Below are positions 41 through 64,000 of a stretch of 64,000 bases of DNA, in pieces (position 1 is the stretch's first letter; every line of letters begins with the position of its first letter). Origin of the DNA: Laetmonice hystrix (Eukaryota); the NCBI GenBank assembly GCA_965235115.1, contig OZ249436.1, forward strand, positions 15,130,001-15,194,000, read 5' to 3'. Position numbers and translations under genes: made by a program. The notes below the pieces were generated by a model. The model was not told the origin of the DNA. It worked only from the letters and a program-made list of their open reading frames with translations, and made no database searches.

Positions 41-205
41 TGGCGCCGCGCGTGCGGGTTAGTCCGTCGACCCAGTTCCACACGTCGGGTTCTTCCGTCA
101 CCCTCAAGTGTCACGCCGACGGCGTCCCAGAACCGGAAGTCATGTGGGAGATGAACGAGGCCCCGCTCACCAACGACCCCACCGAACAGCACTACGTGCG
201 CATGC
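41..205 (+). CDS. FSTL4/5-like exon: N-terminal half of Ig I-set domain
   Basis: Acceptor CAG 38-40, donor GTGAGT at 206; encodes APRVRVSPSTQFHTSGSSVTLKCHADGVPEPEVMWEMNEAPL... Confidence 0.85.
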
Positions 206-4206: not shown

Positions 4207-4275
4207 CCTCCACCTAGTGGAGGAGAATGGTACCAGATAATTCGGTTGGTTTGTTTATTGTTGGTATATCTACGC
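4207..4275. repeat. Possible degenerate end of a Helentron/HINE-like interspersed repeat
   Basis: 7-bp stem hairpin CCTCCAC-CTA-GTGGAGG (4207-4223) followed about 20 bp later by a (GTTT/GTTG)n-like tract. This hairpin-plus-microsatellite layout is typical of such elements; no other support. Confidence 0.3.
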
Positions 4276-5468: not shown

Positions 5469-5474
5469 AATAAA
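5469..5474 (+). promoter_or_regulatory. Candidate polyadenylation signal (AATAAA) of the FSTL4/5-like gene; alternatives at 3247-3252 and 6311-6316
   Basis: Canonical hexamers downstream of the stop codon in AT-rich non-coding sequence. Which one is used cannot be told from sequence alone. Confidence 0.35.
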
Positions 5475-6395: not shown

Positions 6396-6921
6396 AGGGG
6401 CATATTATGAGGAAACGTTAAAAATCGGTATTTCATAGAACTTTTGCTGTTTTCATAAAGAGATCCTTCATTAAAATTGCTTAGTAAACAAATACAGACT
6501 TATCAGTTTCATTTTGAGTGAGAAATCGAAGTTTATTAAGCACCTTGCCCACTTCTCTGCCGATTTCGTAAAATATTTTTTGGGTGGCATTCTGATGCCG
6601 GGCGATCGAGTGCCACTGCTGAATTGTTTACAACTAAGCAAAGCACGTGACTAAGCACATGCAGAGCGTGCACACACAGGATGTGACACAGTATGCAATT
6701 ACACGGGTTGATGGGGGTTGTCCGCCAAATTATGGCGGGAGATGTGCTATCGGGAGAAATCTATAGGTTTGGTCGTATAGAACCGACTTGTGCTGCATAC
6801 GCAGCGAAAATACGTCGGAGGACAAAAAGCTGTGGTAGGATTATTTACTTGGATCCCTAGTACACGGTCATGTTGGATAATTGCCGGAAATCCTCAAAAA
6901 CGTGTTTCATAGCATGCCCCT
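6396..6921. mobile_element. Non-autonomous DNA transposon (MITE), Kolobok-like, 526 bp
   Basis: TTAA on both flanks (6392-6395, 6922-6925). The left end AGGGGCATATTATGA matches the reverse complement of the right end AGGGGCATGCTATGA at 13/15. No ORF. A TTAA target duplication with 5'-RR...YY-3' ends fits Kolobok rather than piggyBac (CC...GG ends). Confidence 0.75.
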
Positions 6922-7121
6922 TTAACCATTAATATGGTCATGCATCTTGAGTTGTCAAGGGGCATCGCGCATCCTGCATTCTACCCCTTGAGCTCGGCCC
7001 AGGCTAAACTGTGGGAGGCTGACCTTGAGGTCAACCTCATGAATATTAACAGGACCTGACATCGGCGTCATAAACTCGCCACTAACACCACTAAACGGTC
7101 TTGTCCGATAGCATAGATCTA

Positions 7122-10100
7122 TGCACTGCCACCTTCCGGCTACCGGTGGAATCACCACGTATACCTGGCCGGGCTGGCGGGCACCTGTGTCGCTTACCGG
7201 AGAGATAGGATTCTGCAATGATAAGCGAAAAATTGCTTCATTTTTGATACGTCAAATATAAATTACGCCCCCCAAATTATCATTTTTGGCCAGATGTATA
7301 ACTGTAAAACATTTCCCTCACGTACGTTCCCTACGTATAAATGGTTGTGAAAGGTATACTTCTCATTTGAGTATCTTCTCCAAATTTTAAGAGTAGATGC
7401 CCCTCGCCTATACCTTTCATTTCCACTACGTCACTGCACTGTTTGCTAGGGTACTAGGCCAGCCAGTAGGCTACCATGTAGGGATTCCTTACTGTACTGT
7501 TTGGCCTCGCAGTACTGTTTGGCATCCCTGTACTGTTTGGCCTCAATGTACTGGTTGCTTGGGTACTGCGACAGGCAGTACCATGTAAGGACTCCTCACT
7601 GCATATTGTTTGGCCTCCCTGTACTGTTTGGCCTCACTGTACTGTTTGCTTGGGTACTGGGGCAGGCAGTGCCGTGTAGGGACTCCTCACTGTACTGTTT
7701 GGCCTCCCTGTACTGTTTGCTTGCATACAACGTTAGCCAGTAGTGTAGAGACGCCTCATGTTTCATGTTTCCATGCCTTTATTGTCCAGGAAGCAGGCCA
7801 TACGTTTTGTCAATCTTTTACTCCCATCTAATCTGTGTCCCCTACAGACCATCTGTAAGCGTCCGACAACGTTGTCAGGTAGCCCCAGTGGCAATTTGCC
7901 GTAAAGGTTTATTTAACAATGGCAAATGACGTTGTACGCCTTTCCTATATCAGATACCCCATCCCCAAGTAAAAAACGATTACAGAGATGTTGCAGGCAA
8001 CCGCCAGGGTGCTGTGCTGAAGCAGCGGCTCCAACTGCACTGCCACCTTCCGGCTACCGGTGGAATCACCACGTATACCTGGCCGGGCTGCCAGGCACCT
8101 GTGGCGCCTAGGGGAGAGACAGGTTTATGCAATGATAAGCGAAAAATGGCCTCATTTTTGATACTTCAATTTGAAAGTACGCCCCCGAAATTATGATTGT
8201 TAGGCCCGATGTATAAATGTCAAACCTATTGGTCTCGTACGTTCGCTACAGATAAATGGTTGTGATATTATACTTCCCGTTTGAGTATCTTTTCCAAATT
8301 TTAACATTAGATGCTCCTCGCCTGTACCTTTCATTTCCACTGCGTCACTGTACTGTTTGCATGGGTAGTAGGCCAGCTTGTAAGATGTACGGACTCTTCA
8401 CTGTACTGTTTGGCCTCCCATTCTGCTTGGCCTAACGGTATAGAATCTACTGTTTGGCCTCACTGTACTGTTTGGCCTCACTGTAGTGTTTGCTTGGGTA
8501 CTAGGCCAGCCAGTAATTTGTGGGGATTCCTCACTGTACTGTTTGGCCTTCCTGTACTCTTTGGCCTCACTCTACTGCTTGCTTGTATACAACCGTAGCC
8601 AGTAGTATACGGATGCCTCATGTTTCATGTTTGCATACCTTTATTGTCCAGGAGGCAGGCCATACGTTTCGTCTATCATTTACTCCCATCTCATCTGTGT
8701 CCCCTACAGACCATCTGTAAGCGTCCGACAACGTTGTCAGGTAGTGCCAATGGCTGTTTGCCGAAAAAGTTTATTTAACAATGGCAAATGACGTTGTACG
8801 CCTTTCCTATATCAGATACCCCATCCCCGAGTAAAAAACGATTACAGAGATATTGCAGGCAACCGCCAGAGTGCTGTGCTGAAGCGGCGGCTCCAACTGC
8901 ACTGCCACCTTCCGGCTACCGGTGGAATCACCACGTAGATCCTCTATACCTGGCCGGGCTGCCAGGCACCTGTGGCGCTTAGGGGAGAGACTGGTTTATG
9001 CAATGATAAGCGAAAAATGGCTTCATTTTTGATACGTCAATTTGAAACTACGCCCCGAAATTATGATTGTTAGGCCAGATATATAAATGTCAAACGTATA
9101 CGTCTCGTACGTTCGCTACAGATAAATGGTTGTGATATGTATACTTCCCGTTTGAATATCTTCTCCAAATTTTAACATTAGATGCTCCTCGCCTGTACCT
9201 TTCATTTCCACTACGTCACTGTATGGTTTGCATGGGTAGTAGGCCAGCTGGTAAGATGTACGGACTCTTCACTGTACTGTTTGGCCTCCCATTCTGCTTG
9301 GCCTCACAGTATACTGTTTGGCCTCACTGTAGTGTTTGCTTGGGTACTAGGCCAGCCAGTACCTTGTGGGGATTCCTCACTGTACTGTTTGGCCTTCCTG
9401 TACTCTTTGGCCTCACTCTACTGCTTGCTTGTATACAACCGTAGCCAGTAGTATACGGATGCCTCTTGTTTCATGTTTGCATGCCTTTATTGTCCAGGAG
9501 GCAGGCCATACGTTTCGTCTATCATTTACTCCCATCTCATCTGTGTCCCCTACAGACCATCTGTAAGCGTCCGACAACGTTGTCAGGTAGTGCCAATGGC
9601 TGTTTGCCGAAAAAGTTTATTTAACAATGGCAAATGACGTTGTACGCCTTTCCTATATCAGATACCCCATTCCCAAGTAAAAAACGATTACACAGATATT
9701 GCAGGCAACGGACAGGGTGCTGTGCTGAAGCGGCGGCTCCAACTGCACTGCCACCTTCCGGCTACCGGTGGAATCACCATGTATACCTGGCCGGGCTGCC
9801 AGGCACCTGTGGCGCTTAGGGGAGAGACTGGTTTATGCAATGATAAGCGAAAAATGGCTTCATTTTTGATACGTCAATTTGAAACTACGCCCCGAAATTA
9901 TGATTGTTAGGCCAGATATATAAATGTCAAACGTATACGTCTCGTACGTTCGCTACAGATAAATGGTTGTGATATGTATACTTCCCGTTTGAATATCTTC
10001 TCCAAATTTTAACATTAGATGCTCCTCGCCTGTACCTTTCATTTCCACTACGTCACTGTACTGTTTGCATGGGTAGTAGGCCAGCTGGTAAGATGTACGG

Positions 10101-13100
10101 ACTCTTCACTGTACTGTTTGGCCTCCCATTCTGCTTGGCCTCACAGTATACTGTTTGGCCTCACTGTAGTGTTTGCTTGGGTACTAGGCCAGGCAGTACC
10201 TTGTGGGGATTCCTCACTGTACTGTTTGGCCTTCTTGTACTCTTTGGCCTCACTCTACTGCTTGCTTGTATACAACCGTAGCCAGTAGTATACGGATGCC
10301 TCATGTTTCATGTTTGCATGCCTTTATTGTCCAGGAGGCAGGCCATACGTCTCGTCTATCATTTACTCCCATCTCATCTGTGTCCCCTACAGACCATCTG
10401 TAAGGGTCCGACAACGTTGTCAGGTAGTGCCAATAGCTGTTTGCCGTAAAGGTTTATTTAACAATGGCAAATGACGTTGTACGCCTTTCCTATATCAGAT
10501 ATCCCATCCCCAAGTGAAAAACGATTACAGAGATGTTGCAGGCAACTGCCAGGGTGCTGTGCTGAAGCGGCGGCTCCGACTGCACTGCCACCTTCCGGCT
10601 ACCGGTGGAATCACCACGTTTACCTGGCCGGGCTGGCAGCCACCTGTGGCGCTTAGGGGAGAGACAGGTTTCTGCAATGATAAGTGAAAAACGGCCTCAT
10701 TTTTGATACGTCAATTTGAAACTACGCCCCCGAAATTATGATTGTTAGGCCAGATCTATAAATGTCAAACCTATTGGTCTCGTACGTTCGCTACAGATAA
10801 ATAGTTGTGATATGTATATTTCGCATTTGAGTATCTTCTCCACATTTTAACATTAGATGCTCCTCGCCTGTATATTTCATTTCCACTACCTCACTTTACT
10901 GTTTGCATGGGTAGTAGGCCAGCTGGTAAGATGTACGGATTCCTCACTGTACTGTTTGACCTCCTATACTGCTTTGCCTCACTGTCCTCTTTGGCCTCAC
11001 TGTAGTGTTTCCTTGGGTACTAGGCCAGGCAGTACCTTGTGGGGATTCCTCACTCTACTGTTTGGCCTTCCTGTACTCTTTGGCCTCACTCTACTGCTTG
11101 CTTGTATACAACCGTAGCCAGTAGTATACGGATGCCTCATGTTTCATGTTTGCATGCCTTTATTGTCCAGGAGGCAGGCCATACGTTTCGTCTATCATTT
11201 ACTCCCATCTCATCTGTGTCCCCTACAGACCATCTGTAAGGGTCCGACAACGTTGTCAGGTAGTGCCAATGGCTGTTTGCCGAAAAAGTTTATTTAACAA
11301 TGGCAAATGACGTTGTACGCCTTTCCTATATCAGATACCCAATCCCCAGGTAAAAAAACGATTACAGAGATGTTGCAGGCAACCGCCAGGGTGCTGTGCT
11401 GGAGCGGCGGCTCCAACTGCACTGCCACCTTCCGGCTACCGGTGGAATCACCACGTATACCTGGCCGGGCTGCCAGGCACCTGTGGCGCTTAGGGGAGAG
11501 ACAGGTTTCTGCAATGATAAGCGAAAAATGTCCTCATTTTTGATACGTCAATTTGAAACTGCGCCCCCGAAATTATGATTGTTAGGCCAGATGTATAAAT
11601 GTCAAACCTATTGGTCTCGTACGTTCGCTACAGATAAATGGTTGTGATATGTATACTTCCCGTTTGAGTATCTTGTCCAAATTTTAACATTATATGCTCC
11701 TCGCCTGTACCTTTCATTTCCACTGCGTCACTGTACTGTTTGCATGGGTAGTAGGCCAGCTTGTAAGATGTACGGACTCTTCACTGTGCTGTTTGGCCTC
11801 CCATTCTGCTTCGCCTCACAGTATACTGTTTGGCCTCACTGTACTGTTTGGCCTCACTGTAGTGTTTGCTTGGGTACTAGGCCAGGCAGTACCTTGTGGG
11901 GATTCCTCACTGTACTGTTTGGCCTTCCTGTACTCTTTGGCCTCACTCTACTGCTTGCTTGTATACAACCGTAGCCAGTAGTGTACGGATGCCTCATGTT
12001 TCATGTTTGCATGCCTTTATTGTCCAGGAGGCAGGCCATACGTTTCGTCTATCATTTACTCCCATCTCATCTGTGTCCCCTACAGACCATCTGTAAGTGT
12101 TCGACAACGTTGTCAGGTAGTGCCAATGGCTGTTTGCCGTAAAGGTTTAATTAACAATGGCAAATGACGTTCTACGCCTTTTCTATATCAGATATCCCAT
12201 CACCAAGTGAAAAACGATTACAGACATGTTGCAGACAACCGCCAGGGTGCTGTGCTGACGCGGTGACTCCGACTGCACTGCCACCTTCCGGCTACCGGTG
12301 GAATCACGACGTATACCTGGCACGGCTTCCAGGCACCTGTGGCGCTTAGGGGAGAGACAGGTTTCTGCAATGATAAGTGAAAAATGGCCTCATTTTTGAT
12401 ACGTCAATTTGAAACTACGCCCCCGAAATTATGATTGTTAGGCCAGATGTATAAATGTCAAACCTATTGGTCTCGTACGTTCGCTACAGATAAATGGTTG
12501 TGATATGTATACTTCCCGTTTGAGTATCTTGTCCAAATTTTAACATTAGATGCTCCTCGCATGTACCTTTCATTTCCACTGCGTCACTGTACTGTTTGCA
12601 TGGGTAGTAGGCCAGCTTGTAAGATGTACGGACTCTTCACTGTGCTGTTTGGCCTCCCATTCTGCTTCGCCTCACAGTATACTGCTTTGCCTCCCTGTTC
12701 CGTTTGGCCTCACTGTAGTGTTTGCTTGGGTACTAGGCCAGGCAGTACCTTGTGGGGATTCCTCACTGTACTGTTTGGCCTTCCTGTACTCTTTGGCCTC
12801 ACTACGCCTTTCCTATATCAGATACCCCATCCCCAAGTAAAAAACGATTACAGAGATATTGCAGGCAACCGCCAGGGTGCTGTGCTGAAGCGGCGGCTCC
12901 AACTGCACTGCCACCTTCCGGCTACCGGTGGAATCACCACATATACCTGGCCGGGCTGCCAGGCACCTGTGGCGCTTAGGGGAGAGACAGGTTTCTGCAA
13001 TGATAAGCGAAAAATGTCCTCATTTTTCATACGTCAATTTGAAACTGCGCCCCCGAAATTATGATTGTTAGGCCAGATCTATAAATGTCAAACCTATTGG

Positions 13101-16100
13101 TCTCGTACGTTCGCTACAGATAAATAGTTGTGATATGTATATTTCGCATTTGAGTATCTTCTCCACATTTTAACATTAGATGCTCCTCGCCTGTATATTT
13201 CATTTCCACTACCTCACTTTACTGTTTGCATGGGTAGTAGGCCAGCTGGTAAGATGTACGGATTCCTCACTGTACTGTTTGGCCTCGTATACTGCTTTGC
13301 CTCACTGTCCTCTTTGGCCTCACTGTAGTGTTTGCTTGGGTACTAGGCCAGGCAGTACCTTGTGGGGATTCCTCACTCTACTGTTTGGCCTTCCTGTACT
13401 CTTTGGCCTCACTCTACTGCTTGCTTGTATACAACCGTAGCCAGTAGTATACGGATGCCTCATGTTTCATGTTTGCATGCCTTTATTGTCCAGGAGGCAG
13501 GCCATACATTTCGTCTATCATTTACTCCCATCTCATCTGTGTCCCCTACAGACCATCTGTAAGGGTCCGACAACGTTGTCAGGTAGTGCCAATGGCTGTT
13601 TGCCGAAAAAGTTTATTTAACAATGGCAAATGACGTTGTACGCCTTTCCTATATCAGATACCCAATCCCCAAGTAAAAAAACGATTACAGAGATGTTGCA
13701 GGCAACCGCCAGGGTGCTGTGCTGGAGCGGCGGCTCCAACTGCACTGCCACCTTCCGGCTACCGGTGGAATCACCACGTATACCTGGCCGGGCTGCCAGG
13801 CACCTGTGGCGCTTAGGGGAGAGACAGGTTTCTGCAATGATAAGCGAAAAATGTTCTCATTTTTGATACGTCAATTTGAAACTACGCCCCCGAAATTATG
13901 ATTGTTAGGCCAGATATATAAATGTCAAACGTATACGTCTCGTACGTTCGCTACAGATAAATGGTTGTGATATGTATACTTCCCGTTTGAGTATCTTTTC
14001 CAAATTTTAACATTAGATGCTCCTCGCCTGTACCTTTCATTTCCACTACGTCACTGTACTGTTTGGATGGGTAGTAGGCCAGCTTGTAAGATGTACGGAC
14101 TCTTCACTGTACTGTTTGGCCTCCCATTCTGCTTTGCCTAACGGTATAGAATCTACTGTTTGGCCTCCCTGTACTGTTTGGCCTCACTGTAGTGTTTGCT
14201 TGGGTACTAGGCCAGCCAGTACCTTGTGGGGATTCCTCACTGTACTGTTTGGCCTTCCTGTACTCTTTGGCCTCACTCTACTGCTTGCTTGTATACAACC
14301 GTAGCCAGTAGTATACGGATGCCTCTTGTTTCATGTTTGCATGCCTTTATTGTCCAGGAGGCAGGCCATACGTTTCGTCTATCATTTACTCCCATCTCAT
14401 CTGTGTCCCCTACAGACCATCTGTAAGCGTCCGACAACGTTGTCAGGTAGTGCCAATGGCTGTTTGCCGAAAAAGTTTATTTAACAATGGCAAATGACGT
14501 TGTACGCCTTTCCTATATCAGATACCCCATCCCCAAGTAAAAAACGATTACAGAGATATTGCAGGCAACCGCCAGGGTGCTGTGCTGAAGCGGCGGCTCC
14601 AACTGCACTGCCACCTTCCGGCTACCGGTGGAATCACCACATATACCTGGCCGGGCTGCCAGGCACCTGTGGCGCTTAGGGGAGAGACAGGTTTCTGCAA
14701 TGATAAGCGAAAAATGTCCTCATTTTTGATACGTCAATTTGAAACTGCGCCCCCGAAATTATGATTGTTAGGCCAGATGTATAAATGTCAAACCTATTGG
14801 TCTCGTACGTTCGCTACAGATAAATGGTTGTGATATGTATACTTCCCGTTTGAGTATCTTGTCCAAATTTTAACATTATATGTCCTCGCCTGTACCTTTC
14901 ATTTCCACTGCGTCACTGTACTGTTTGCATGGGTAGTAGGCCAGCTTGTAAGATGTACGGACTCTTCACTGTGCTGTTTGGCCTCCCATTCTGCTTCGCC
15001 TCACAGTATACTGTTTGGCCTCACTGTACTGTTTGGCCTCACTGTAGTGTTTGCTTGGGTACTAGGCCAGGCAGTACCTTGTGGGGATTCCTCACTGTAC
15101 TGTTTGGCCTTCCTGTACTCTTTGGCCTCACTCTACTGCTTGCTTGTATACAACCGTAGCCAGTAGTGTACGGATGCCTCATGTTTCATGTTTGCATGCC
15201 TTTATTGTCCAGGAGGCAGGCCATACGTTTCGTCTATCATTTACTCCCATCTCATCTGTGTCCCCTACAGACCATCTGTAAGTGTTCGACAACGTTGTCA
15301 GGTAGTGCCAATGGCTGTTTGCCGTAAAGGTTTAATTAACAATGGCAAATGACGTTCTACGCCTTTCCTATATCAGATATCCCATCACCAAGTGAAAAAC
15401 GATTACAGAGATGTTGCAGGCAACCGCCAGGGTGCTGTGCTGAAGCGGTGGCTCCGACTGCACTGCCACCTTCCGGCTACCGGTGGAATCACCACGTATA
15501 CCTGGCCCGGCTTCCAGGCACCTGTGGCGCTTAGGGGAGAGACAGGTTTCTGCAATGATAAGCGAAAAATGGCCGCATTTTTGATACGTCAATTTGAAAC
15601 TACGCCCCCGAAATTATGATTGTTAGGCCAGATGTATAAATGTCAAACCTATTGGTCTCGTACGTTCGCTACAGATAAATGGTTGTGATATGTATACTTC
15701 CCGTTTGAGTATCTTGTACAAATTTTAACATTAGATGCTCCTCGCATGTACCTTTCATTTCCACTGCGTCACTGTACTGTTTGCATGGGTAGTAGGCCAG
15801 CTTGTAAGATGTACGGACTCTTCACTGTGCTGTTTGGCCTCCCATTCTGCTTCGCCTCACAGTATACTGCTTTGCCTCCCTGTTCCGTTTGGCCTCACTG
15901 TAGTGTTTGCTTGGGTACTAGGCCAGGCAGTACCTTGTGGGGATTCCTCACTCTACTGTTTGGCCTTCCTGTACTCTTTGGCCTCACTCTACTGCTTGCT
16001 TGTATACAACCGTAGCCAGTAGTGTACGGATGCCTCATGTTTCATGTTTGCATGCCTTTGTTGTCCAGGAGGCAGGCCATACGTTTCGTCTATCATTTAC

Positions 16101-19100
16101 TCCCATCTCATCTGTGTCCCCTACAGACCATCTGTAAGGGTCCGACAACGTTGTCAGGTAGTGCCAATGGCTGTTTGCCGTAAAGGTTTAATTAACAATG
16201 GCAAATGACGTTCTACGCCTTTCCTATATCAGATATCCCATCACCAAGTGAAAAACGATTACAGAGATGTTGCAGACAACCGCCAGGGTGCTGTGCTGAC
16301 GCGGTGACTCCGACTGCACTGCCACCTTCCGGCTACCGGTGGAATCACGACGTATACCTGGCACGGCTTCCAGGCACCTGTGGCGCTTAGGGGAGAGACA
16401 GGTTTCTGCAATGATAAGTGAAAAACGGCCTCATTTTTGATACGTCAATTTGAAACTACGCCCCCGAAATTATGATTGTTAGGCCAGATCTATAAATGTC
16501 AAACCTATTGGTCTCGTACGTTCGCTACAGATAAATAGTTGTGATATGTATATTTCGCATTTGAGTATCTTCTCCACATTTTAACATTAGATGCTCCTCG
16601 CCTGTATATTTCATTTCCACTACCTCACTTTACTGTTTGCATGGGTAGTAGGCCAGCTGGTAAGATGTACGGATTCCTCACTGTACTGTTTGACCTCCTA
16701 TACTGCTTTGCCTCACTGTCCTCTTTGGCCTCACTGTAGTGTTTCCTTGGGTACTAGGCCAGGCAGTACCTTGTGGGGATTCCTCACTCTACTGTTTGGC
16801 CTTCCTGTACTCTTTGGCCTCACTCTACTGCTTGCTTGTATACAACCGTAGCCAGTAGTATACGGATGCCTCATGTTTCATGTTTGCATGCCTTTATTGT
16901 CCAGGAGGCAGGCCATACGTTTCGTCTATCATTTACTCCCATCTCATCTGTGTCCCCTACAGACCATCTGTAAGGGTCCGACAACGTTGTCAGGTAGTGC
17001 CAATGGCTGTTTGCCGAAAAAGTTTATTTAACAATGGCAAATGACGTTGTACGCCTTTCCTATATCAGATACCCAATCCCCAAGTAAAAAAACGATTACA
17101 GAGATGTTGCAGGCAACCGCCAGGGTGCTGTGCTGGAGCGGCGGCTCCAACTGCACTGCCACCTTCCGGCTACCGGTGGAATCACCACGTATACCTGGCC
17201 GGGCTGCCAGGCACCTGTGGCGCTTAGGGAAGAGACAGGTTTCTGCAATGATAAGCGAAAAATGTTCTCATTTTTGATACGTCAATTTGAAACTACGCCC
17301 CCGAAATTATGATTGTTAGGCCAGATATATAAATGTCAAACGTATACGTCTCGTACGTTCGCTACAGATAAATGGTTGTGATATGTATACTTCCCGTTTG
17401 AGTATCTTTTCCAAATTTTAACATTAGATGCTCCTCGCCTGTACCTTTCATTTCCACTACGTCACTGTACTGTTTGGATGGGTAGTAGGCCAGCTTGTAA
17501 GATGTACGGACTCTTCACTGTACTGTTTGGCCTCCCATTCTGCTTTGCCTAACGGTATAGAATCTACTGTTTGGCCTCCCTGTACTGTTTGGCCTCACTG
17601 TAGTGTTTGCTTGGGTACTAGGCCAGCCAGTACCTTGTGGGGATTCCTCACTGTACTGTTTGGCCTTCCTGTACTCTTTGGCCTCACTCTACTGCTTGCT
17701 TGTATACAACCGTAGCCAGTAGTATACGGATGCCTCTTGTTTCATGTTTGCATGCCTTTATTGTCCAGGAGGCAGGCCATACGTTTCGTCTATCATTTAC
17801 TCCCATCTCATCTGTGTCCCCTACAGACCATCTGTAAGCGTCCGACAACGTTGTCAGGTAGTGCCAATGGCTGTTTGCCGAAAAAGTTTATTTAACAATG
17901 GCAAATGACGTTGTACGCCTTTCCTATATCAGATACCCCATCCCCAAGTAAAAAACGATTACAGAGATATTGCAGGCAACCGCCAGGGTGCTGTGCTGAA
18001 GCGGCGGCTCCAACTGCACTGCCACCTTCCGGCTACCGGTGGAATCACCACATATACCTGGCCGGGCTGCCAGGCACCTGTGGCGCTTAGGGGAGAGACA
18101 GGTTTCTGCAATGATAAGCGAAAAATGTCCTCATTTTTGATACGTCAATTTGAAACTGCGCCCCCGAAATTATGATTGTTAGGCCAGATGTATAAATGTC
18201 AAACCTATTGGTCTCGTACGTTCGCTACAGATAAATGGTTGTGATATGTATACTTCCCGTTTGAGTATCTTGTCCAAATTTTAACATTATATGTCCTCGC
18301 CTGTACCTTTCATTTCCACTGCGTCACTGTACTGTTTGCATGGGTAGTAGGCCAGCTTGTAAGATGTACGGACTCTTCACTGTGCTGTTTGGCCTCCCAT
18401 TCTGCTTCGCCTCACAGTATACTGTTTGGCCTCACTGTACTGTTTGGCCTCACTGTAGTGTTTGCTTGGGTACTAGGCCAGGCAGTACCTTGTGGGGATT
18501 CCTCACTGTACTGTTTGGCCTTCCTGTACTCTTTGGCCTCACTCTACTGCTTGCTTGTATACAACCGTAGCCAGTAGTGTACGGATGCCTCATGTTTCAT
18601 GTTTGCATGCCTTTATTGTCCAGGAGGCAGGCCATACGTTTCGTCTATCATTTACTCCCATCTCATCTGTGTCCCCTACAGACCATCTGTAAGTGTTCGA
18701 CAACGTTGTCAGGTAGTGCCAATGGCTGTTTGCCGTAAAGGTTTAATTAACAATGGCAAATGACGTTCTACGCCTTTCCTATATCAGATATCCCATCACC
18801 AAGTGAAAAACGATTACAGAGATGTTGCAGGCAACCGCCAGGGTGCTGTGCTGAAGCGGTGGCTCCGACTGCACTGCCACCTTCCGGCTACCGGTGGAAT
18901 CACCACGTATACCTGGCCCGGCTTCCAGGCACCTGTGGCGCTTAGGGGAGAGACAGGTTTCTGCAATGATAAGCGAAAAATGGCCGCATTTTTGATACGT
19001 CAATTTGAAACTACGCCCCCGAAATTATGATTGTTAGGCCAGATGTATAAATGTCAAACCTATTGGTCTCGTACGTTCGCTACAGATAAATGGTTGTGAT

Positions 19101-52100: not shown

Positions 52101-55100
52101 GAAAAATGGCCTCATTTTTGATACGTCAATTTGAAACTACGCCCCCGAAATTATGATTGTTAGGCCAAATCTATAAATGTCAAACCTATTGGTCTCGTAC
52201 GTTCGCTACAGATAAATAGTTGTGATATGTATATTTCGCATTTGAGTATCTTCTCCACATTTTAACATTAGATGCTCCTCGCCTGTATATTTTATTTCCA
52301 CTACCTCACTTTACTGTTTGCATGGGTAGTAGGCCAGCTGGTAAGATGTACGGATTCCTCACTGTACTGTTTGGCCTCCTATACTGCTTTGCCTCACTGT
52401 CCTCTTTGGCCTCACTGTAGTGTTTGCTTGGGTACTAGGCCAGGCAGTACCTTGTGGGGATTCCTCACTCTACTGTTTGGCCTTCCTGTACTCTTTGGCC
52501 TCACTCTACTGCTTGCTTGTATACAACCGTAGCCAGTAGTATACGGATGCCTCATGTTTCATGTTTGCATGCCTTTATTGTCCAGGAGGCAGGCCATACG
52601 TTTCGTCTATCATTTACTCCCATCTCATCTGTGTCCCCTACAGACCATCTGTAAGGGTCCGACAACGTTGTCAGGTAGTGCCAATGGCTGTTTGCCGAAA
52701 AAGTTTATTTAACAATGGCAAATGACGTTGTACGCCTTTCCTATATCAGATACCCAATCCCCAAGTAAAAAAACGATTACAGAGATGTTGCAGGCAACCG
52801 CCAGGGTGCTGTGCTGGAGCGGCGGCTCCAACTGCACTGCCACCTTCCGGCTACCGGTGGAATCACCACGTATACCTGGCCGGGCTGCCAGGCACCTGTG
52901 GCGCTTAGGGGAGAGACAGGTTTCTGCAATGATAAGCGAAAAATGTTCTCATTTTTGATACGTCAATTTGAAACTACGCCCCCGAAATTATGATTGTTAG
53001 GCCAGATATATAAATGTCAAACGTATACGTCTCGTACGTTCGCTACAGATAAATGGTTGTGATATGTATACTTCCCGTTTGAATATCTTCTCCAAATTTT
53101 AACATTAGATGCTCCTCGCCTGTACCTTTCATTTCCACTACGTCACTGTATGGTTTGCATGGGTAGTAGGCCAGCTGGTAAGATGTACGGACTCTTCACT
53201 GTACTGTTTGGCCTCCCATTCTGCTTGGCCTCACAGTATACTGTTTGGCCTCACTGTAGTGTTTGCTTGGGGACTAGGCCAGGCAGTACCTTGTGGGGAT
53301 TCCTCACTGTACTGTTTGGCCTTCTTGTACTCTTTGGCCTCACTCTACTGCTTGCTTGTATACAACCATAGCCAGTAGTATACGGATGCCTCATGTTTCA
53401 TGTTTGCATGCCTTTATTGTCCAGGAGGCAGGCCATACGTTTCGTCAATCATTTACTCCCATCTCATCTGTGTCCCCTACAGACCATCTGTAAGGGTCCG
53501 ACAACGTTGTCAGGTAGTGCCAATGGCTGTTTGCCGTAAAGGTTTAATTATCAATGGCAAATGACGTTCTACGCCTTTCCTATATCAGATACCCAATCCC
53601 CAAGTAAAAAAACGATTACAGAGATGTTGCAGGCAACCGCCAGGGTGCTGTGCTGGAGCGGCGGCTCCAACTGCACTGCCACCTTCCGGCTACCGGTGGA
53701 ATCACCACGTATACCTGGCCGGGCTGCCAGGCACCTGTGGCGCTTAGGGGAGAGACAGGTTTCTGCAATGATAAGCGAAAAATGTCCTCATTTTTGATAC
53801 GTCAATTTGAAACTACGCCCCCGAAATTATTATTGTTAGGCCAGATGTATAAATGTCAAACCTATTGGTCTCGTACGTTCGCTACAGATAAATGGTTGTG
53901 ATATGTATACTTCCCGTTTGAGTATCTTTTCCAAATTTTAACATTAGATGCTCCTCGCCTGTACCTTTCATTTCCACTACGTCACTGTACTGTTTGCATG
54001 GGTAGTAGGCCAGCTTGTAAGATGTACGGACTCTTCACTGTACTGTTTGGCCTCCCATTCTGCTTGGCCTAACGGTATAGAATCTACTGTTTGGCCTCCC
54101 TGTACTGTTTGGCCTCACTGTAGTGTTTGCTTGGGTACTAGGCCAGCCAGTACCTTGTGGGGATTCCTCACTGTACTGTTTGGCCTTCCTGTACTCTTTG
54201 GCCTCACTCTACTGCTTGCTTGTATACAACCGTAGCCAGTAGTATACGGATGCCTCTTGTTTCATGTTTGCATGCCTTTATTGTCCAGGAGGCAGGCCAT
54301 ACGTTTCGTCTATCATTTACTCCCATCTCATCTGTGTCCCCTACAGACCATCTGTAAGTGTTCGACAACGTTGTCAGGTAGTGCCAATGGCTGTTTGCCG
54401 TAAAGGTTTAATTAACAATGGCAAATGACGTTCTACGCCTTTCCTATATCAGATATCCCATCACCAAGTGAAAAACGATTACAGAGATGTTGCAGGCAAC
54501 CGCCAGGGTGCTGTGCTGAAGCGGTGGCTCCGACTGCACTGCCACCTTCCGGCTACCGGTGGAATCACCACGTATACCTGGCCCGGCTTCCAGGCACCTG
54601 TGGCGCTTAGGGGAGAGACAGGTTTCTGCAATGATAAGCGAAAAATGGCCGCATTTTTGATACGTCAATTTGAAACTACGCCCCCGAAATTATGATTGTT
54701 AGGCCAGATGTATAAATGTCAAACCTATTGGTCTCGTACGTTCGCTACAGATAAATGGTTGTGATATGTATACTTCCCGTTTGAGTATCTTGTTCAAATT
54801 TTAACATTAGATGCTCCTCGCATGTACCTTTCATTTCCACTGCGTCACTGTACTGTTTGCATGGGTAGTAGGCCAGCTTGTAAGATGTACGGACTCTTCA
54901 CTGTGCTGTTTGGCCTCCCATTCTGCTTCGCCTCACAGTATACTGCTTTGCCTCACTGTTCCGTTTGGCCTCACTGTAGTGTTTGCTTGGGTACTAGGCC
55001 AGGCAGTACCTTGTGGGGATTCCTCACTCTACTGTTTGGCCTTCCTGTACTCTTTGGCCTCACTCTACTGCTTGCTTGTATACAACCGTAGCCAGTAGTG

Positions 55101-58100
55101 TACGGATGCCTCATGTTTCATGTTTGCATGCCTTTGTTGTCCAGGAGGCAGGCCATACGTTTCGTCTATCATTTACTCCCATCTCATCTGTGTCCCCTAC
55201 AGACCATCTGTAAGGGTCCGACAACGTTGTCAGGTAGTGCCAATGGCTGTTTGCCGTAAAGGTTTAATTAACAATGGCAAATGACGTTCTACGCCTTTCC
55301 TATATCAGATATCCCATCACCAAGTGAAAAACGATTACAGAGATGTTGCAGACAACCGCCAGGGTGCTGTGCTGACGCGGTGACTCCGACTGCACTGCCA
55401 CCTTCCGGCTGCCGGTGGAATCACGACGTATACCTGGCACGGCTTCCAGGCACCTGTGGCGCTTAGGGGAGAGACAGGTTTCTGCAATGATAAGTGAAAA
55501 ATGGCCTCATTTTTGATACGTCAATTTGAAACTACGCCCCCGAAATTATGATTGTTAGGCCAGATCTATAAATGTCAAACCTATTGGTCTCGTACGTTCG
55601 CTACAGATAAATAGTTGTGATATGTATATTTCGCATTTGAGTATCTTCTCCACATTTTAACATTAGATGCTCCTCGCCTGTATATTTCATTTCCACTACC
55701 TCACTTTACTGTTTGCATGGGTAGTAGGCCAGCTGCTAAGATGTACGGATTCCTCACTGTACTGTTTGGCCTCCTATACTGCTTTGCCTCACTGTCCTCT
55801 TTGGCCTCACTGTAGTGTTTGCTTGGGTACTAGGCCAGGCAGTACCTTGTGGGGATTCCTCACTCTACTGTTTGGCCTTCCTGTACTCTTTGGCCTCACT
55901 CTACTGCTTGCTTGTATACAACCGTAGCCAGTAGTATACGGATGCCTCATGTTTCATGTTTGCATGCCTTTATTGTCCAGGAGGCAGGCCATACGTTTCG
56001 TCTATCATTTACTCCCATCTCATCTGTGTCCCCTACAGACCATCTGTAAGGGTCCGACAACGTTGTCAGGTAGTGCCAATGGCTGTTTGCCGAAAAAGTT
56101 TATTTAACAATGGCAAATGACGTTGTACGCCTTTCCTATATCAGATACCCAATCCCCAAGTAAAAAAACGATTACAGAGATGTTGCAGGCAACCGCCAGG
56201 GTGCTGTGCTGGAGCGGCGGCTCCAACTGCACTGCCACCTTCCGGCTACCGGTGGAATCACCACGTATACCTGGCCGGGCTGCCAGGCACCTGTGGCGCT
56301 TAGGGGAGAGACAGGTTTCTGCAATGATAAGCGAAAAATGTTCTCATTTTTGATACGTCAATTTGAAACTACGCCCCCGAAATTATGATTGTTAGGCCAG
56401 ATATATAAATGTCAAACGTATACGTCTCGTACGTTCGCTACAGATAAATGGTTGTGATATGTATACTTCCCGGTTGAATATCTTCTCCAAATTTTAACAT
56501 TAGATGCTCCTCGCCTGTACCTTTCATTTCCACTACGTCACTGTATGGTTTGCATGGGTAGTAGGCCAGCTGGTAAGATGTACGGACTCTTCACTGTACT
56601 GTTTGGCCTCCCATTCTGCTTGGCCTCACAGTATACTGTTTGGCCTCACTGTAGTGTTTGCTTGGGTACTAGGCCAGGCAGTACCTTGTGGGGATTCCTC
56701 ACTGTACTGTTTGGCCTTCTTGTACTCTTTGGCCTCACTCTACTGCTTGCTTGTATACAACCATAGCCAGTAGTATACGGATGCCTCATGTTTCATGTTT
56801 GCATGCCTTTATTGTCCAGGAGGCAGGCCATACGTTTCGTCAATCATTTACTCCCATCTCATCTGTGTCCCCTACAGACCATCTGTAAGGGTCCGACAAC
56901 GTTGTCAGGTAGTGCCAATGGCTGTTTGCCGTAAAGGTTTAATTATCAATGGCAAATGACGTTCTACGCCTTTCCTATATCAGATACCCAATCCCCAAGT
57001 AAAAAAACGATTACAGAGATGTTGCAGGCAACCGCCAGGGTGCTGTGCTGGAGCGGCGGCTCCAACTGCACTGCCACCTTCCGGCTACCGGTGGAATCAC
57101 CACGTATACCTGGCCGGGCTGCCAGGCACCTGTGGCGCTTAGGGGAGAGACAGGTTTCTGCAATGATAAGCGAAAAATGTCCTCATTTTTGATACGTCAA
57201 TTTGAAACTACGCCCCCGAAATTATGATTGTTAGGCCAGATGTATAAATGTCAAACCTATTGGTCTCGTACGTTCGCTACAGATAAATGGTTGTGATATG
57301 TATACTTCCCGTTTGAGTATCTTTTCCAAATTTTAACATTAGATGCTCCTCGCCTGTACCTTTCATTTCCACTACGTCACTGTACTGTTTGCATGGGTAG
57401 TAGGCCAGCTTGTAAGATCTACGGACTCTTCACTGTACTGTTTGGCCTCCCATTCTGCTTGGCCTAACGGTATAGAATCTACTGTTTGGCCTCCCTGTAC
57501 TGTTTGGCCTCACTGTAGTGTTTGCTTGGGTACTAGGCCAGCCAGTACCTTGTGGGGATTCCTCACTGTACTGTTTGGCCTTCCTGTACTCTTTGGCCTC
57601 ACTCTACTGCTTGCTTGTATACAACCGTAGCCAGTAGTATACGGATGCCTCTTGTTTCATGTTTGCATGCCTTTATTGTCCAGGAGGCAGGCCATACGTT
57701 TCGTCTATCATTTACTCCCATCTCATCTGTGTCCCCTACAGACCATCTGTAAGCGTCCGACAACGTTGTCAGGTAGTGCCAATGGCTGTTTGCCGAAAAA
57801 GTTTATTTAACAATGGCAAATGACGTTGTACGCCTTTCCTATATCAGATACCCCATCCCCAAGTAAAAAACGATTACAGAGATATTGCAGGCAACCGCCA
57901 GGGTGCTGTGCTGAAGCGGCGGCTCCAACTGCACTGCCACCTTCCGGCTACCGGTGGAATCACCACGTATACCTGGCCGGGCTGCCAGGCACCTGTGGCG
58001 CTTAGGGGAGAGACAGGTTTCTGCAATGATAAGCGAAAAATGTCCTCATTTTTGATACGTCAATTTGAAACTGCGCCCCCGAAATTATGATTGTTAGGCC

Positions 58101-61100
58101 AGATGTATAAATGTCAAACCTATTGGTCTCGTACGTTCGCTACAGATAAATGGTTGTGATATGTATACTTCCCGTTTGAGTATCTTGTCCAAATTTTAAC
58201 ATTATATGCTCCTCGCCTGTACCTTTCATTTCCACTGCGTCACTGTACTGTTTGCATGGGTAGTAGGCCAGCTTGTAAGATGTAGGGACTCTTCACTGTG
58301 CTGTTTGGCCTCCCATTCTGCTTCGCCTCACAGTATACTGTTTGGCCTCACTGTACTGTTTGGCCTCACTGTAGTGTTTGCTTGGGTACTAGGCCAGGCA
58401 GTACCTTGTGGGGATTCCTCACTGTACTGTTTGGCCTTCCTGTACTCTTTGGCCTCACTCTACTGCTTGCTTGTATACAACCGTAGCCAGTAGTGTACGG
58501 ATGCCTCATGTTTCATGTTTGCATGCCTTTATTGTCCAGGAGGCAGGCCATACGTTTCGTCTATCATTTACTCCCATCTCATCTGTGTCCCCTACAGACC
58601 ATCTGTAAGTGTTCGACAACGTTGTCAGGTAGTGCCAATGGCTGTTTGCCGTAAAGGTTTAATTAACAATGGCAAATGACGTTCTACGCCTTTCCTATAT
58701 CAGATAACGAAAAACGATTACAGAGATGTTGCAGACAACCGCCAGGGTGCTGTGCTGACGCGGTGACTCCGACTGCACTGCCACCTTCCGGCTACCGGTG
58801 GAATCACCACGTATACCTGGCACGGCTTCCAGGCACCTGTGGCGCTTAGGTGAGAGACAGGTTTCTGCAATGATAAGTGAAAAATGGCCTCATTTTTGAT
58901 ACGTCAATTTGAAACTACGCCCCCGAAATTATGATTGTTAGGCCAGATCTATAAATGTCAAACCTATTGGTCTCGTACGTTCGCTACAGATAAATAGTTG
59001 TGATATGTATATTTCGCATTTGAGTATCTTCTCCACATTTTAACATTAGATGCTCCTCGCCTGTACCTTTCATTTCCACTACGTCACTGTACTGTTTGCA
59101 TGGGTAGTAGGCCAGCTTGTAAGATCTACGGACTCTTCACTGTACTGTTTGGCCTCCCATTCTGCTTGGCCTAACGGTATAGAATCTACTGTTTGGCCTC
59201 CCTGTACTGTTTGGCCTCACTGTAGTGTTTGCTTGGGTACTAGGCCAGCCAGTACCTTGTGGGGATTCCTCACTGTACTGTTTGGCCTTCCTGTACTCTT
59301 TGGCCTCACTCTACTGCTTGCTTGTATACAACCGTAGCCAGTAGTATACGGATGCCTCTTGTTTCATGTTTGCATGCCTTTATTGTCCAGGAGGCAGGCC
59401 ATACGTTTCGTCTATCATTTACTCCCATCTCATCTGTGTCCCCTACAGACCATCTGTAAGCGTCCGACAACGTTGTCAGGTAGTGCCAATGGCTGTTTGC
59501 CGAAAAAGTTTATTTAACAATGGCAAATGACGTTGTACGCCTTTCCTATATCAGATACCCCATCCCCAAGTAAAAAACGATTACAGAGATATTGCAGGCA
59601 ACCGCCAGGGTGCTGTGCTGAAGCGGCGGCTCCAACTGCACTGCCACCTTCCGGCTACCGGTGGAATCACCACGTATACCTGGCCGGGCTGCCAGGCACC
59701 TGTGGCGCTTAGGGGAGAGACAGGTTTCTGCAATGATAAGCGAAAAATGTCCTCATTTTTGATACGTCAATTTGAAACTGCGCCCCCGAAATTATGATTG
59801 TTAGGCCAGATGTATAAATGTCAAACCTATTGGTCTCGTACGTTCGCTACAGATAAATGGTTGTGATATGTATACTTCCCGTTTGAGTATCTTGTCCAAA
59901 TTTTAACATTATATGCTCCTCGCCTGTACCTTTCATTTCCACTGCGTCACTGTACTGTTTGCATGGGTAGTAGGCCAGCTTGTAAGATGTAGGGACTCTT
60001 CACTGTGCTGTTTGGCCTCCCATTCTGCTTCGCCTCACAGTATACTGTTTGGCCTCACTGTACTGTTTGGCCTCACTGTAGTGTTTGCTTGGGTACTAGG
60101 CCAGGCAGTACCTTGTGGGGATTCCTCACTGTACTGTTTGGCCTTCCTGTACTCTTTGGCCTCACTCTACTGCTTGCTTGTATACAACCGTAGCCAGTAG
60201 TGTACGGATGCCTCATGTTTCATGTTTGCATGCCTTTATTGTCCAGGAGGCAGGCCATACGTTTCGTCTATCATTTACTCCCATCTCATCTGTGTCCTCT
60301 ACAGACCATCTGTAAGTGTTCGACAACGTTGTCAGGTAGTGCCAATGGCTGTTTGCCGTAAAGGTTTAATTAACAATGGCAAATGACGTTCTACGCCTTT
60401 CCTATATCAGATAACGAAAAACGATTACAGAGATGTTGCAGACAACCGCCAGGGTGCTGTGCTGACGCGGTGACTCCGACTGCACTGCCACCTTCCGGCT
60501 ACCGGTGGAATCACCACGTATACCTGGCACGGCTTCCAGGCACCTGTGGCGCTTAGGTGAGAGACAGGTTTCTGCAATGATAAGTGAAAAATGGCCTCAT
60601 TTTTGATACGTCAATTTGAAACTACGCCCCCGAAATTATGATTGTTAGGCCAGATCTATAAATGTCAAACCTATTGGTCTCGTACGTTCGCTACAGATAA
60701 ATAGTTGTGATATGTATATTTCGCATTTGAGTATCTTCTCCACATTTTAACATTAGATGCTCCTCGCCTGTATATTTCATTTCCACTACCTCACTTTACT
60801 GTTTGCATGGGTAGTAGGCCAGCTGGTAAGATGTACGGATTCCTCACTGTACTGTTTGGCCCCCTATACTGCTTTGCCTCACTGTCCTCTTTGGCCTCAC
60901 TGTAGTGTTTGCTTGGGTACTAGGCCAGGCAGTACCTTGTGGGGATTCCTCACTCTACTGTTTGGCCTTCCTGTACTCTTTGGCCTCACTCTACTGCTTC
61001 CTTGTATACAACCGTAGCCAGTAGTATACGGATGCCTCATGTTTCATGTTTGCATGCCTTTATTGTCCAGGAGGCAGGCCATACGTTTCGTCTATCATTT

Positions 61101-64000
61101 ACTCCCATCTCATCTGTGTCCCCTACAGACCATCTGTAAGGGTCCGACAACGTTGTCAGGTAGTGCCAATGGCTGTTTGCCGAAAAAGTTTATTTAACAA
61201 TGGCAAATGACGTTGTACGCCTTTCCTATATCAGATACCCAATCCCCAAGTAGAAAAACGATTACAGAGATGTTGCAGGCAACCGCCAGGGTGCTGTGCT
61301 GGAGCGGCGGCTCCAACTGCACTGCCACCTTCCGGCTACCGGTGGAATCACCACGTATACCTGGCCGGGCTGCCAGGCACCTGTGGCGCTTAGGGGAGAG
61401 ACAGGTTTCTGCAATGATAAGCGAAAAATGTTCTCATTTTTGATACGTCAATTTGAAACTACGCCCCCGAAATTATGATTGTTAGGCCAGATATATAAAT
61501 GTCAAACGTATACGTCTCGTACGTTCGCTACAGATAAATGGTTGTGATATGTATACTTCCCGTTTGAATATCTTCTCCAAATTTTAACATTAGATGCTCC
61601 TCGCCTGTACTTTTCATTTCCACTACGTCACTGTATGGTTTGCATGGGTAGTAGGCCAGCTGGTAAGATGTACGGACTCTTCACTGTACTGTTTGGCCTC
61701 CCATTCTGCTTGGCCTCACAGTATACTGTTTGGCCTCACTGTAGTGTTTGCTTGGGTACTAGGCCAGGCAGTACCTTGTGGGGATTCCTCACTGTACTGT
61801 TTGGCCTTCTTGTACTCTTTGGCCTCACTCTACTGCTTGCTTGTATACAACCATAGCCAGTAGTATACATATCCCTCATGTTTCATGTTTGCATGCCTTT
61901 ATTGTCCAGGAGGCAGGCCATACGTTTCGTCAATCATTTACTCCCATCTCATCTGTGTCCCCTACAGACCATCTGTAAGGGTCCGACAACGTTGTCAGGT
62001 AGTGCCAATGGCTGTTTGCCGTAAAGGTTTAATTATCAATGGCAAATGACGTTCTACGCCTTTCCTATATCAGATACCCAATCCCCAAGTAAAAAAACGA
62101 TTACAGAGATGTTGCAGGCAACCGCCAGGGTGCTGTGCTGGAGCGGCGGCTCCAACTGCACTGCCACCTTCCGGCTACCGGTGGAATCACCACGTATACC
62201 TGGCCGGGCTGCCAGGCACCTGTGGCGCTTAGGGGAGAGACAGGTTTCTGCAATGATAAGCGAAAAATGTCCTCATTTTTGATACGTCAATTTGAAACTA
62301 CGCCCCCGAAATTATGATTGTTAGGCCAGATGTATAAATGTCAAACCTATTGGTCTCGTACGTTCGCTACAGATAAATGGTTGTGATATGTATACTTCCC
62401 GTTTGAGTATCTTTTCCAAATTTTAACATTAGATGCTCCTCGCCTGTACCTTTCATTTCCACTACGTCACTGTACTGTTTGCATGGGTAGTAGGCCAGCT
62501 TGTAAGATGTACGGACTCTTCACTGTACTGTTTGGCCTCCCATTCTGCTTGGCCTAACGGTGTAGAATCTACTGTTTGGCCTCCCTGTACTGTTTGGCCT
62601 CACTGTAGTGTTTGCTTGGGTACTAGGCCAGCCAGTACCTTGTGGGGATTCCTCACTGTACTGTTTGGCCTTCCTGTACTCTTTGGCCTCACTCTACTGC
62701 TTGCTTGTATACAACCGTAGCCAGTAGTATACGGATGCCTCTTGTTTCATGTTTGCATGCCTTTATTGTCCAGGAGGCAGGCCATACGTTTCGTCTATCA
62801 TTTACTCCCATCTCATCTGTGTCCCCTACAGACCATCTGTAAGCGTCCGACAACGTTGTCAGGTAGTGCCAATGGCTGTTTGCCGAAAAAGTTTATTTAA
62901 CAATGGCAAATGACGTTGTACGCCTTTCCTATATCAGATACCCCATTCCCAAGTAAAAAACGATTACAGAGATATTGCAGGCAACCGCCAGGGTGCTGTG
63001 CTGAAGCGGCGGCTCCAACTGCACTGCCACCTTCCGGCTACCGGTGGAATCACCATGTATACCTGGCCGGGCTGCCAGGCACCTGTGGCGCTTAGGGGAG
63101 AGACTGGTTTATGCAATGATAAGCGAAAAATGGCTTCATTTTTGATACGTCAATTTGAAACTACGCCCCGAAATTATGATTGTTAGGCCAGATATATAAA
63201 TGTCAAACGTATACGTCTCGTACGTTCGCTACAGATAAATGGTTGTGATATGTATACTTCCCGTTTGAATATCTTCTCCAAATTTTAACATTATATGCTC
63301 CTCGCCTGTACCTTTCATTTCCACTACGTCACTGTACTGTTTGCATGGGTAGTAGGCCAGCTGGTAAGATGTACGGACTCTTCACTGTACTGTTTGGCCT
63401 CCCATTCTGCTTGGCCTCACAGTATACTGTTTGGCCTCACTGTAGTGTTTGCTTGGGTACTAGGCCAGGCAGTACCTTGTGGGGATTCCTCACTCTACTG
63501 TTTGGCCTTCTTGTACTCTTTGGCCTCACTCTACTGCTTGCTTGTATACAACCGTAGCCAGTAGTATACGGATGCCTCATGTCTCATGTTTGCATGCCTT
63601 TATTGTCCAGGAGGCAGGCCATACGTCTCGTCTATCATTTACTCCCATCTCATCTGTGTCCCCTACAGACCATCTGTAAGGGTCCGACAACGTTGTCAGG
63701 TAGTGCCAATAGCTGTTTGCCGTAAAGGTTTAATTAACAATGGCAAATGACGTTCTACGCCTTTCCTATATCAGATATCCCATCCCCAAGTGAAAAACGA
63801 TTACAGAGATGTTGCAGGCAACCGCCAGGGTGCTGTGCTGAAGCGGTGGCTCCGACTGCACTGCCACCTTCCGGCTACCGGTGGAATCACCACGTTTACC
63901 TGGCCGGGCTGGCAGCCACCTGTGGCGCTTAGGGGAGAGACAGGTTTCTGCAATGATAAGCGAAAAATGGCCTCATTTTTATACGTCAATTTGAAACTAC
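7122..64000 (+). repeat. Macrosatellite: ~67 head-to-tail monomers of ~835-865 bp with higher-order organisation, continuing past the window end
   Basis: The same sequence and the same short ORFs recur every 836-864 bp (e.g. the (A)GATGCTCCTCGC landmark at 8311, 9182, 10019, 10857, 11694 ... 62433, 63295). I count 67 such landmarks including the divergent one at 7397. All copies share one orientation. Confidence 0.98.
7430..7760 (+). repeat. Nested internal minisatellite of the monomer (18-bp CACTGTACTGTTTGGCCT units grouped in ~85-bp modules); best preserved in the first monomer
   Basis: Repeated ACTGTACTGTTTGGCCTC units interrupted by TTGCTTGGGTACTAGGCCAGGCAGTACC..TGTAGGGA(C/T)TCCT modules; present in every monomer with variable copy number. 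Confidence 0.9.

Follow-up and report, generated by a model that had tools for sequence, protein, structure and literature searches.

How does an array of long and nearly identical tandem repeats come to carry an ordered series of subtypes? The question is raised by a stretch of 64,000 nucleotides from the annelid Laetmonice hystrix (GenBank assembly GCA_965235115.1, contig OZ249436.1, positions 15,130,001 to 15,194,000 of the forward strand; hereafter the window), most of which is taken up by monomers of ~850 bp. The original prediction described them as a macrosatellite at 8311..63564 whose five subtypes, A to E, form a higher-order repeat (HOR) of ~4.25 kb, remodelled by out-of-register unequal exchange and possibly centromeric. 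By anchor search, the 64-kb window has 67 monomer starts over ~57 kb, the first at 7397 and the last at 63295. The array is therefore real, but it is longer than predicted: its left edge is a partial monomer at 7121, ~1.2 kb to the left of 8311, and its last monomer is truncated by the window end, the array continuing past 64000. From 8311 on there are 65 whole monomers of 837-871 bp, except for one of 630 bp that was shortened by a 226-bp deletion at 12802; 38 of the 65 sequences are distinct. Every copy has the same orientation, and the window shares no 16-mer with its own reverse complement. A long head-to-tail array of similar monomers with no recognised gene in the unit is a satellite, and we put at about three in four the probability that it holds a young, riddled HOR, recently expanded from five adjacent monomers by unequal homologous exchange and requiring no function.

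Exploring the order of the subtypes, we found that the five diagnostic motifs proposed for sorting the monomers agreed exactly with the type of the monomer head in 61 of the 66 monomers from 8311 onward, and that from 14017 all 58 letters of the predicted order agreed with independent head typing. Within the core of the array (Table 1), 39 of the 56 pairs of adjacent heads followed the A-B-C-D-E cycle, while 100,000 permutations gave a maximum of 26, ruling out an order indistinguishable from random. The 57 core monomers were then painted on a circular reference, the five-monomer unit at 37800-42050, each jump being penalized. The painted path required 19 jumps, which by count come down to 10 distinct breakpoints, the remaining jumps being copies, whereas each of 200 shuffled orders required at least 49. 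Among all 120 successor maps ABCDE was the cheapest, with a cost of 189 against 240 for the runner-up. Trying each run of n neighbouring monomers as reference gave costs of 1397, 1024, 644, 388, 247, 214, 208 and 171 for n = 1 to 8, indicating that the gain of the model flattens after five monomers. Furthermore, the tail of a monomer predicted the head of the next one at 53 of the 56 core junctions, at 19 of the 21 distinct junction sequences and at 61 of the 65 junctions overall. Together, the linkage of tail to head, the first place of ABCDE and the levelling at n = 5 uphold the proposal of a five-monomer cycle remodelled by out-of-register exchange.

Many monomers are hybrids in which head and tail belong to different types. 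Each of the 10 core breakpoints could be located to within ~50 alignment columns; the breakpoints are scattered along the monomer, with no support for a hotspot in it (clustering P=0.19), and the jumps move one or two steps on the cycle. Core monomers carry a mean of 1.4 alleles found outside the five references. Divergence between core copies at the same position of the cycle is 0.39-0.73% versus 3.3-6.2% between subtypes, so that same-position copies are far closer to each other than monomers within a unit, and with their non-random order they form a HOR in the broad sense. The head types were not fully recovered from monomers taken whole: at k=5, 8 of the 57 in the core clustered apart from the type of their head, being head/tail hybrids, and the silhouette rose from 0.66 at k=5 to 0.74-0.75 at k=10-11.

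The large near-perfect duplications in the array all span whole numbers of monomers (2, 3, 4, 10 and 14), and they are nested: each copy of the 8,487-bp duplication contains a duplication of 2,542 bp (3 monomers), and each copy of the 11,897-bp duplication contains one of 1,707 bp (2 monomers). A complete ABCDE of 4,251 bp had been placed at 37800-42051 and at 49697-53948, and both spans proved exact; the two copies show no difference in 4,251 bp because both lie within one 11,897-bp duplication, and hence they represent a single event and one independent complete A-to-E copy. Two intact ABCDE copies in tandem were not found anywhere in the array. The unit at 37800-42050 and its neighbours (~36600-46800) make up ~2.6 tandem cycles interrupted by one single-monomer deletion, with 0-5 differing sites between successive cycle copies for each monomer, whole or partial, that was compared, and the longest unbroken runs of the cycle, of 6.9 and 5.0 monomers, are neighbours split by one single-monomer deletion. 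At an offset of five monomers (4,254 bp) there is one 3.1-kb match with 5 mismatches. At lag 5, 6 of 52 monomer pairs were less than 1% divergent, fewer than at lag 4 (11 of 53), lag 10 (17 of 47) or lag 14 (22 of 43), and the mean divergence at lag 5 was 3.71% versus 3.65% overall. The array thus has no fixed five-monomer period, and its subtypes are far closer than the 20-35% between monomers that marks a regular HOR; its units skip or repeat whole monomers and its duplicated blocks have mixed spacings, which makes it a HOR of the riddled or heterogeneous kind and not of the regular alpha-satellite kind. In contrast to these block events, the 226-bp deletion and a 12-bp deletion shared by four hybrid monomers (46309, 48016, 58206 and 59913) shift the monomer register.

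Repeats as alike as those of 11.9 and 8.5 kb, whose copies differ at one of 11,962 and at none of 8,545 positions, could have been made by the assembly, through two haplotypes or a stretch entered twice, in which case part of the order would be false; their lengths, moreover, are near those of long reads. However, each duplication joint has its own hybrid monomer, where distinct variant sets overlap by just ~60 identical bp and which a read would need to cross, and the cycle persists in non-duplicate lineages 0.4-1.7% apart and survives removal of the blocks. We consider an assembly artefact most improbable.

The cycle, the hybrids, the nested blocks and the levels of divergence are observed; for the order of events, the repair pathway, the recent growth and the lack of function we infer the following course. 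The array would have started from five adjacent monomers that were already 3-6% diverged; copying of this five-monomer block in tandem at least twice would have created the E-to-A junction and with it the cycle, and roughly tenfold growth would have followed as homology-directed events, nested in one another, duplicated or deleted whole numbers of monomers, either by unequal exchange or by repair with template switching between misaligned copies. Each event would break within a monomer and leave a head/tail hybrid, and later events would copy earlier junctions. The resulting HOR would probably be specific to this array, and function would not be required. HORs are likewise ascribed to copy-number-dependent recombination in a recent centromere atlas (bioRxiv 10.64898/2026.09.17.752431).

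We simulated the random duplication and deletion of whole monomer numbers under simple rules of our own, keeping only runs with 2.5-5% mean divergence and counting as a match a 5-mer cost ratio as in the real data (0.192). Growth from 6 founders matched in 10 of 25 kept runs (36 tried) and growth from 10 founders in 8 of 25 (31 tried), or 18 of 50 for both sets together, indicating that in these models a recent small-block expansion is enough for the observed pattern. Several points nevertheless weigh against a recent expansion of five monomers. Steady-state turnover matched in 0 of 28 runs with a mean block of 2 or 4 monomers and in 1 of 14 with a block of 6, and among larger steady-state sets of 60 kept runs, one matched with a block of 6 (70 tried) and five with a block of 10 (306 tried); since steady turnover seldom fits, our account needs a recent burst whose cause it does not supply. 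Given that 10 founders fit about as often as 6, "five" may stand for the number of surviving lineages and not for an ancestral unit. In addition, the five reference monomers came from the array itself, the linkage of a tail to the next head is partly expected wherever arrays grow by block copying, and the edge monomers fit the cycle poorly, with 11 switches in 7 monomers. Finally, the abundance of the family, described below, fits a centromeric role equally well, and we only infer the lack of function.

The flanks of the core appear to be older than the core. The BCD run of the left layer is 1.72% diverged from BCD of the core, and left-layer monomers are finer mosaics of the core's allele pool. 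At the other end, the window closes with two monomers that have 5 and 4 alleles in common with those at 9182 and 10019, all of them absent from every core monomer. The sequences suggest an older period of ~54 kb around the expanded core. Outermost on the left, the border monomer carries 51 alleles that are found in none of the five reference monomers. A time scale comes from contigs of X1, a DNA-like run which with run X4 comes from one sample, possibly the source of the assembly, so that neither is independent support: X1 contigs differ from the window by 16 substitutions in ~6,160 single-copy bases (0.26%). Cycle copies diverge by amounts of this order, and the pattern would therefore be young and probably variable between individuals.

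The X1 contigs also indicate how common the family is. Their summed depth was 52-77 over single-copy sequence, 0.8-0.9 million in bins of a transposable element left of the array and 2.0-7.1 million in monomer bins; summed contig depth is inflated by overlapping contigs and is not a copy number, and these values are read only as those of a very abundant family. A total of 38,201 contigs were placed on 1-8039, the transposable element included. Contigs link 8014-8035, at the unit end, back to 7122, indicating that other copies of the family are also tandem. At 12 listed sites of the border monomer, the X1 majority allele equalled the core majority at 9, while at the other 3 (7714, 7731 and 7732) it occurred in no core monomer (0 of 57). 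The family therefore varies more than this array does, and the five types are probably local to the array. X4 contigs cover the monomer as well; contigs show neither level, strand nor ends. In X6 and X7, from organisms B and C, the repeats occurred at low depth (<=219) with almost no single-copy flank, a picture in which trace DNA and a related species are indistinguishable.

Depth of this order points to a major family, and the family might accordingly be a centromeric or pericentromeric satellite, with the window at the edge of a centromeric array in which kinetochore-linked breakage drives expansion and array-specific HORs. The tandem arrangement of the other copies agrees with this, the three X1 majority alleles missing from the core fit array-specific variants, and the rarity with which steady-state turnover yielded the pattern in simulations can be counted on the same side. 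However, a contig of the spliced run X4 ends ~0.7 kb short of the array, the adjoining gene counting mildly against a centromere, and the most abundant repeat is in some cases not the centromeric one (PMC4053949). We regard a centromeric role as doubtful; it adds a function to the young riddled HOR that we favour, and the copying mechanism is identical in both. A more specific version is unlikely: that the 850-bp family is the centromeric satellite of this annelid, each array having its own young HOR and each unit a conserved CTCF-type site, with the present array less than 1 kb from an expressed gene. If it were true, the window would record, junction by junction, the birth and scrambling of a centromeric HOR within about the time depth of species polymorphism, inside the older ~54-kb period. 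The literature that we found describes no annelid satellite or centromere repeat, and annelids are not named in the main text of the atlas (10.64898/2026.09.17.752431).

Within the monomer, the length differences between subtypes reside in a subrepeat part, and the rest is non-repetitive. The subrepeat fold on the E monomer (41292-41411) was the best of 42 windows, with an RNA z of -4.5 and a DNA z of -2.6 to -2.8. The second of the 42 is a GC-rich hairpin block (Table 1), which on the minus strand is followed by a run of T6-7. It contains on that strand a 14-mer (41779-41792) that is identical in 68 of 68 copies and resembles a CTCF consensus; the motif was picked after viewing the sequence and marks a candidate site. 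Chance would give such a motif ~0.03 times per monomer, and shuffles gave 1.93 per 64 kb. A single further CTCF-like match at 4207-4220, minus strand, in the presumed 3' untranslated region (UTR) of the neighbouring gene, is within chance expectation. The partial monomer at 7121 opens with 56 bases identical to those of the border monomer and of the A, D and E reference monomers, while its remaining 220 bases hold ~35 changes (~15% diverged; P=2e-4). The border of the array (7121-7176) falls at the hairpin block.

These features could mean that the monomer carries a small RNA gene or a CTCF-type insulator, which would make the array, instead of inert satellite, a cluster of multicopy genes or of insulators comparable to DXZ4 or D4Z4. 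The folding of the minus-strand block and the T run behind it, the invariant 14-mer and the clean 56 bases all speak for such an element. Nevertheless, an Rfam scan of the array gave nothing near a gathering score, the fold of the block is not the best in the monomer and its DNA z is just -2.45, the CTCF motif was chosen in hindsight, and the clean 56 bases may reflect a recent exchange at the border. A conserved block was not supported, the longest invariant run among six lineages being within chance (P=0.27), and X4 contigs span all four monomer bins without outlining a discrete transcript, contigs giving no ends or levels. We therefore rate a functional element in the monomer as very unlikely. 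Since no RNA family model matches the unit, the array is not an array of ribosomal DNA, 5S, small nuclear RNA or transfer RNA genes; no transfer RNA genes were found in it, no open reading frame above 102 codons occurs in the part of it that was scanned (7121-10100), and inspection by eye, the only search made for a spliced-leader RNA gene, revealed no convincing pair of splice donor and Sm site. Weak Rfam matches to GcvB, mir-2003, V_AS7 and HepC_CRE, far below gathering scores, were dropped as chance. Pattern scans of metagenome contigs gave no match. Of 67 distinct transitions 15 lie at CpG, and CpG observed/expected was 0.65 in the array as compared with 0.82-0.91 for flanking sequence, values that hint at modest methylation.

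The left flank holds the end of a gene similar to FSTL5 (follistatin-related protein 5), with Pfam matches to the immunoglobulin I-set on the first two exons of the window. It had 16 homologs at E<=1e-39, the best named one being FSTL5 of the annelid Owenia fusiformis (47% identity), followed by molluscs and a nemertean; a search with one exon as query gave no match, while a longer query matched. The top Atlas match, 'Follistatin-like 5', scored 0.94, its recognition value lying under the tool's mark, and a solved-structure search gave no match. The intron at 1034-1162 is free of stops and in frame with both flanking exons (open frame 701-1411). One X4 contig joins exon 1161-1347 to exon 1530-1710, and because of this join we take X4, which is not on record as RNA, to be RNA. 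The single-copy stretch behind the coding exons is probably the long 3' UTR of the gene; the array begins ~0.7 kb past the end of the X4 contig there, and the 3' UTR may end within 0.7 kb of the satellite.

The transposable element mentioned above lies in this gap and has the features of a non-autonomous Kolobok-type miniature inverted-repeat transposable element (MITE), following the element definition of PMC9587614. Its inverted arms (6392-6410 and 6907-6925) are 89% complementary, and in X4 loose contig ends with mixed flanks occur at 6392 and 6925. The segment between the MITE and the array is itself multi-copy, with a summed X1 depth of 74,079 at 6995, 15,032 at 7050 and 3,249 at 7084 against ~57 for single-copy sequence. 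It includes a small hairpin near 7010-7033, and a low-depth X7 contig covers 7050-7086. Given that the array begins 200 bp from a Kolobok-type element, that the intervening segment is multi-copy, and that KolobokP, which is present in annelids, forms tandem multimers (PMC9587614), the monomer could be the amplified interior of a Kolobok/KolobokP or Helentron-type transposon, with the MITE and the segment at 6926-7120 as its left end. However, TTAA closes the MITE at either end and its X4 flanks are mixed at both, and its 526 bp match neither the ~450 bp nor the ~660 bp of a KolobokP solo terminal repeat; among the matches listed, loose ends at 7122 continue as monomer and not as flank; and neither a long terminal inverted repeat nor an open reading frame was found in the monomer, nor were transposon ends, a target-site duplication or a transposase seen in it. 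We consider this origin improbable. In 1-7121 no blastn match to the monomer was better than E 0.27.

Table 1. Features of the window, with positions counted from its first nucleotide
Feature	Position	Strand	Remarks
Core, 57 monomers, one A-B-C-D-E cycle	14017..62432	+	19 in-register jumps, 10 distinct breakpoints
Intact A-B-C-D-E unit, used as reference	37800..42050	+	4,251 bp
14-monomer tandem duplication, 11,897 bp	37096..60954	+	37096-49057 = 48993-60954; one mismatch (37765) in 11,962 bp
10-monomer tandem duplication, 8,487 bp	18070..35101	+	18070-26614 = 26557-35101; 0 mismatches in 8,545 bp
4-monomer (ABCD) tandem duplication, 3,411 bp	13335..20812	+	2 mismatches in 4,067 bp
Older left layer, seven monomers, heads A E E D B C D	8311..14016	+	11 switches in 7 monomers
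Return to left-layer lineage, two monomers	62433..64000	+	shared private alleles; 1.1-1.4% divergence
Border monomer	7397..8310	+	914 bp, ~8% diverged, one additional ~90-bp subrepeat
Partial first monomer	7121..7396	+	~87% identity to core monomers
Subrepeat part of monomer (example)	37834..38140	+	18-bp units in ~90-106-bp blocks; imperfect inverted repeat
GC-rich hairpin block (example)	41732..41851	-	RNA z -4.3 (second of 42 windows), DNA z -2.45
Multi-copy segment between MITE and array, 195 bp	6926..7120	.	unrelated to monomer
Kolobok-type non-autonomous DNA transposon (MITE), 526 bp	6396..6921	.	TTAA both sides, AG...CT ends, short terminal inverted repeats
Single-copy stretch, probable long 3' UTR	3147..6419	+ (inferred from gene)	one X4 contig
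Last seven coding exons of FSTL5-like gene	41..2991	+	splice-site reading, homologs

Preferring a young riddled HOR that grew by unequal exchange, we see the array as a clean test and teaching case, in which event sizes of 1 to 14 monomers and the spread of breakpoints can be compared with models of satellite turnover. Should the family be centromeric, it would offer a first entry point to the centromeres of annelids and to the way HORs form in arrays of long monomers; if it is not, it would be a further satellite in which HOR-like order arises from block copying alone. Abundant satellites are also known from euchromatin near genes (PMC10048060).

The original prediction took a HOR on so long a monomer in an invertebrate to be surprising, which was overstated. 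Riddled 5-mer HORs and candidate centromeric monomers of up to 5 kb are already published: an atlas of 325 Darwin Tree of Life genomes reports HORs, both regimented and heterogeneous, as prevalent in invertebrates, chordates and plants, and monomers of between 201 bp and 5 kb occur in 103 of its 263 candidate centromeric families (10.64898/2026.09.17.752431). Clear HORs were also reported in 76 of 171 species with Sanger data, with monomers of up to 1,419 bp (Melters et al., PMC4053949). The present array resembles the heterogeneous, Arabidopsis-type HORs of the atlas in that blocks of neighbouring monomers are duplicated at mixed spacings with no long-range period; the atlas families, however, are centromere candidates on whole-chromosome evidence. 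The macrosatellites DXZ4 and D4Z4 have ~3-kb units and shown CTCF binding, whereas CTCF at the present array is a guess from a motif. The likeness to primate alpha satellite that had been drawn is a loose one. The logic of the HOR is shared, same-position monomers being closer than those within a unit and variant units arising by loss of whole monomers, but alpha satellite has a 171-bp monomer, 20-35% between monomers and a regular tandem HOR, unlike the 850 bp, 3.3-6.2% and missing five-monomer period found here (PMC5737470). The human NBPF 3-mer HOR, which lies outside centromeres, has kilobase-scale monomers (~1.6 kb) as does our array, but these belong to a gene family and are ~20% apart (PMC5737470). 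Closer in kind is Tcast-360 of Tribolium castaneum, a riddled 5-mer HOR with monomers of 331-369 bp that are mostly 18-26% apart (PMC5737470). Like the array described here, it is from an invertebrate and has five types in a fixed cyclic order, copies that miss whole monomers and same-type copies that are less than 2% apart; unlike it, our array has much longer and more similar monomers, and one independent complete A-to-E copy where 6 of 9 HOR copies of Tcast-360 are complete. Also described in Tribolium are "weak" 6-mer HORs, one of which has ~3% between its monomers and one monomers of ~720 bp (PMC5737470).

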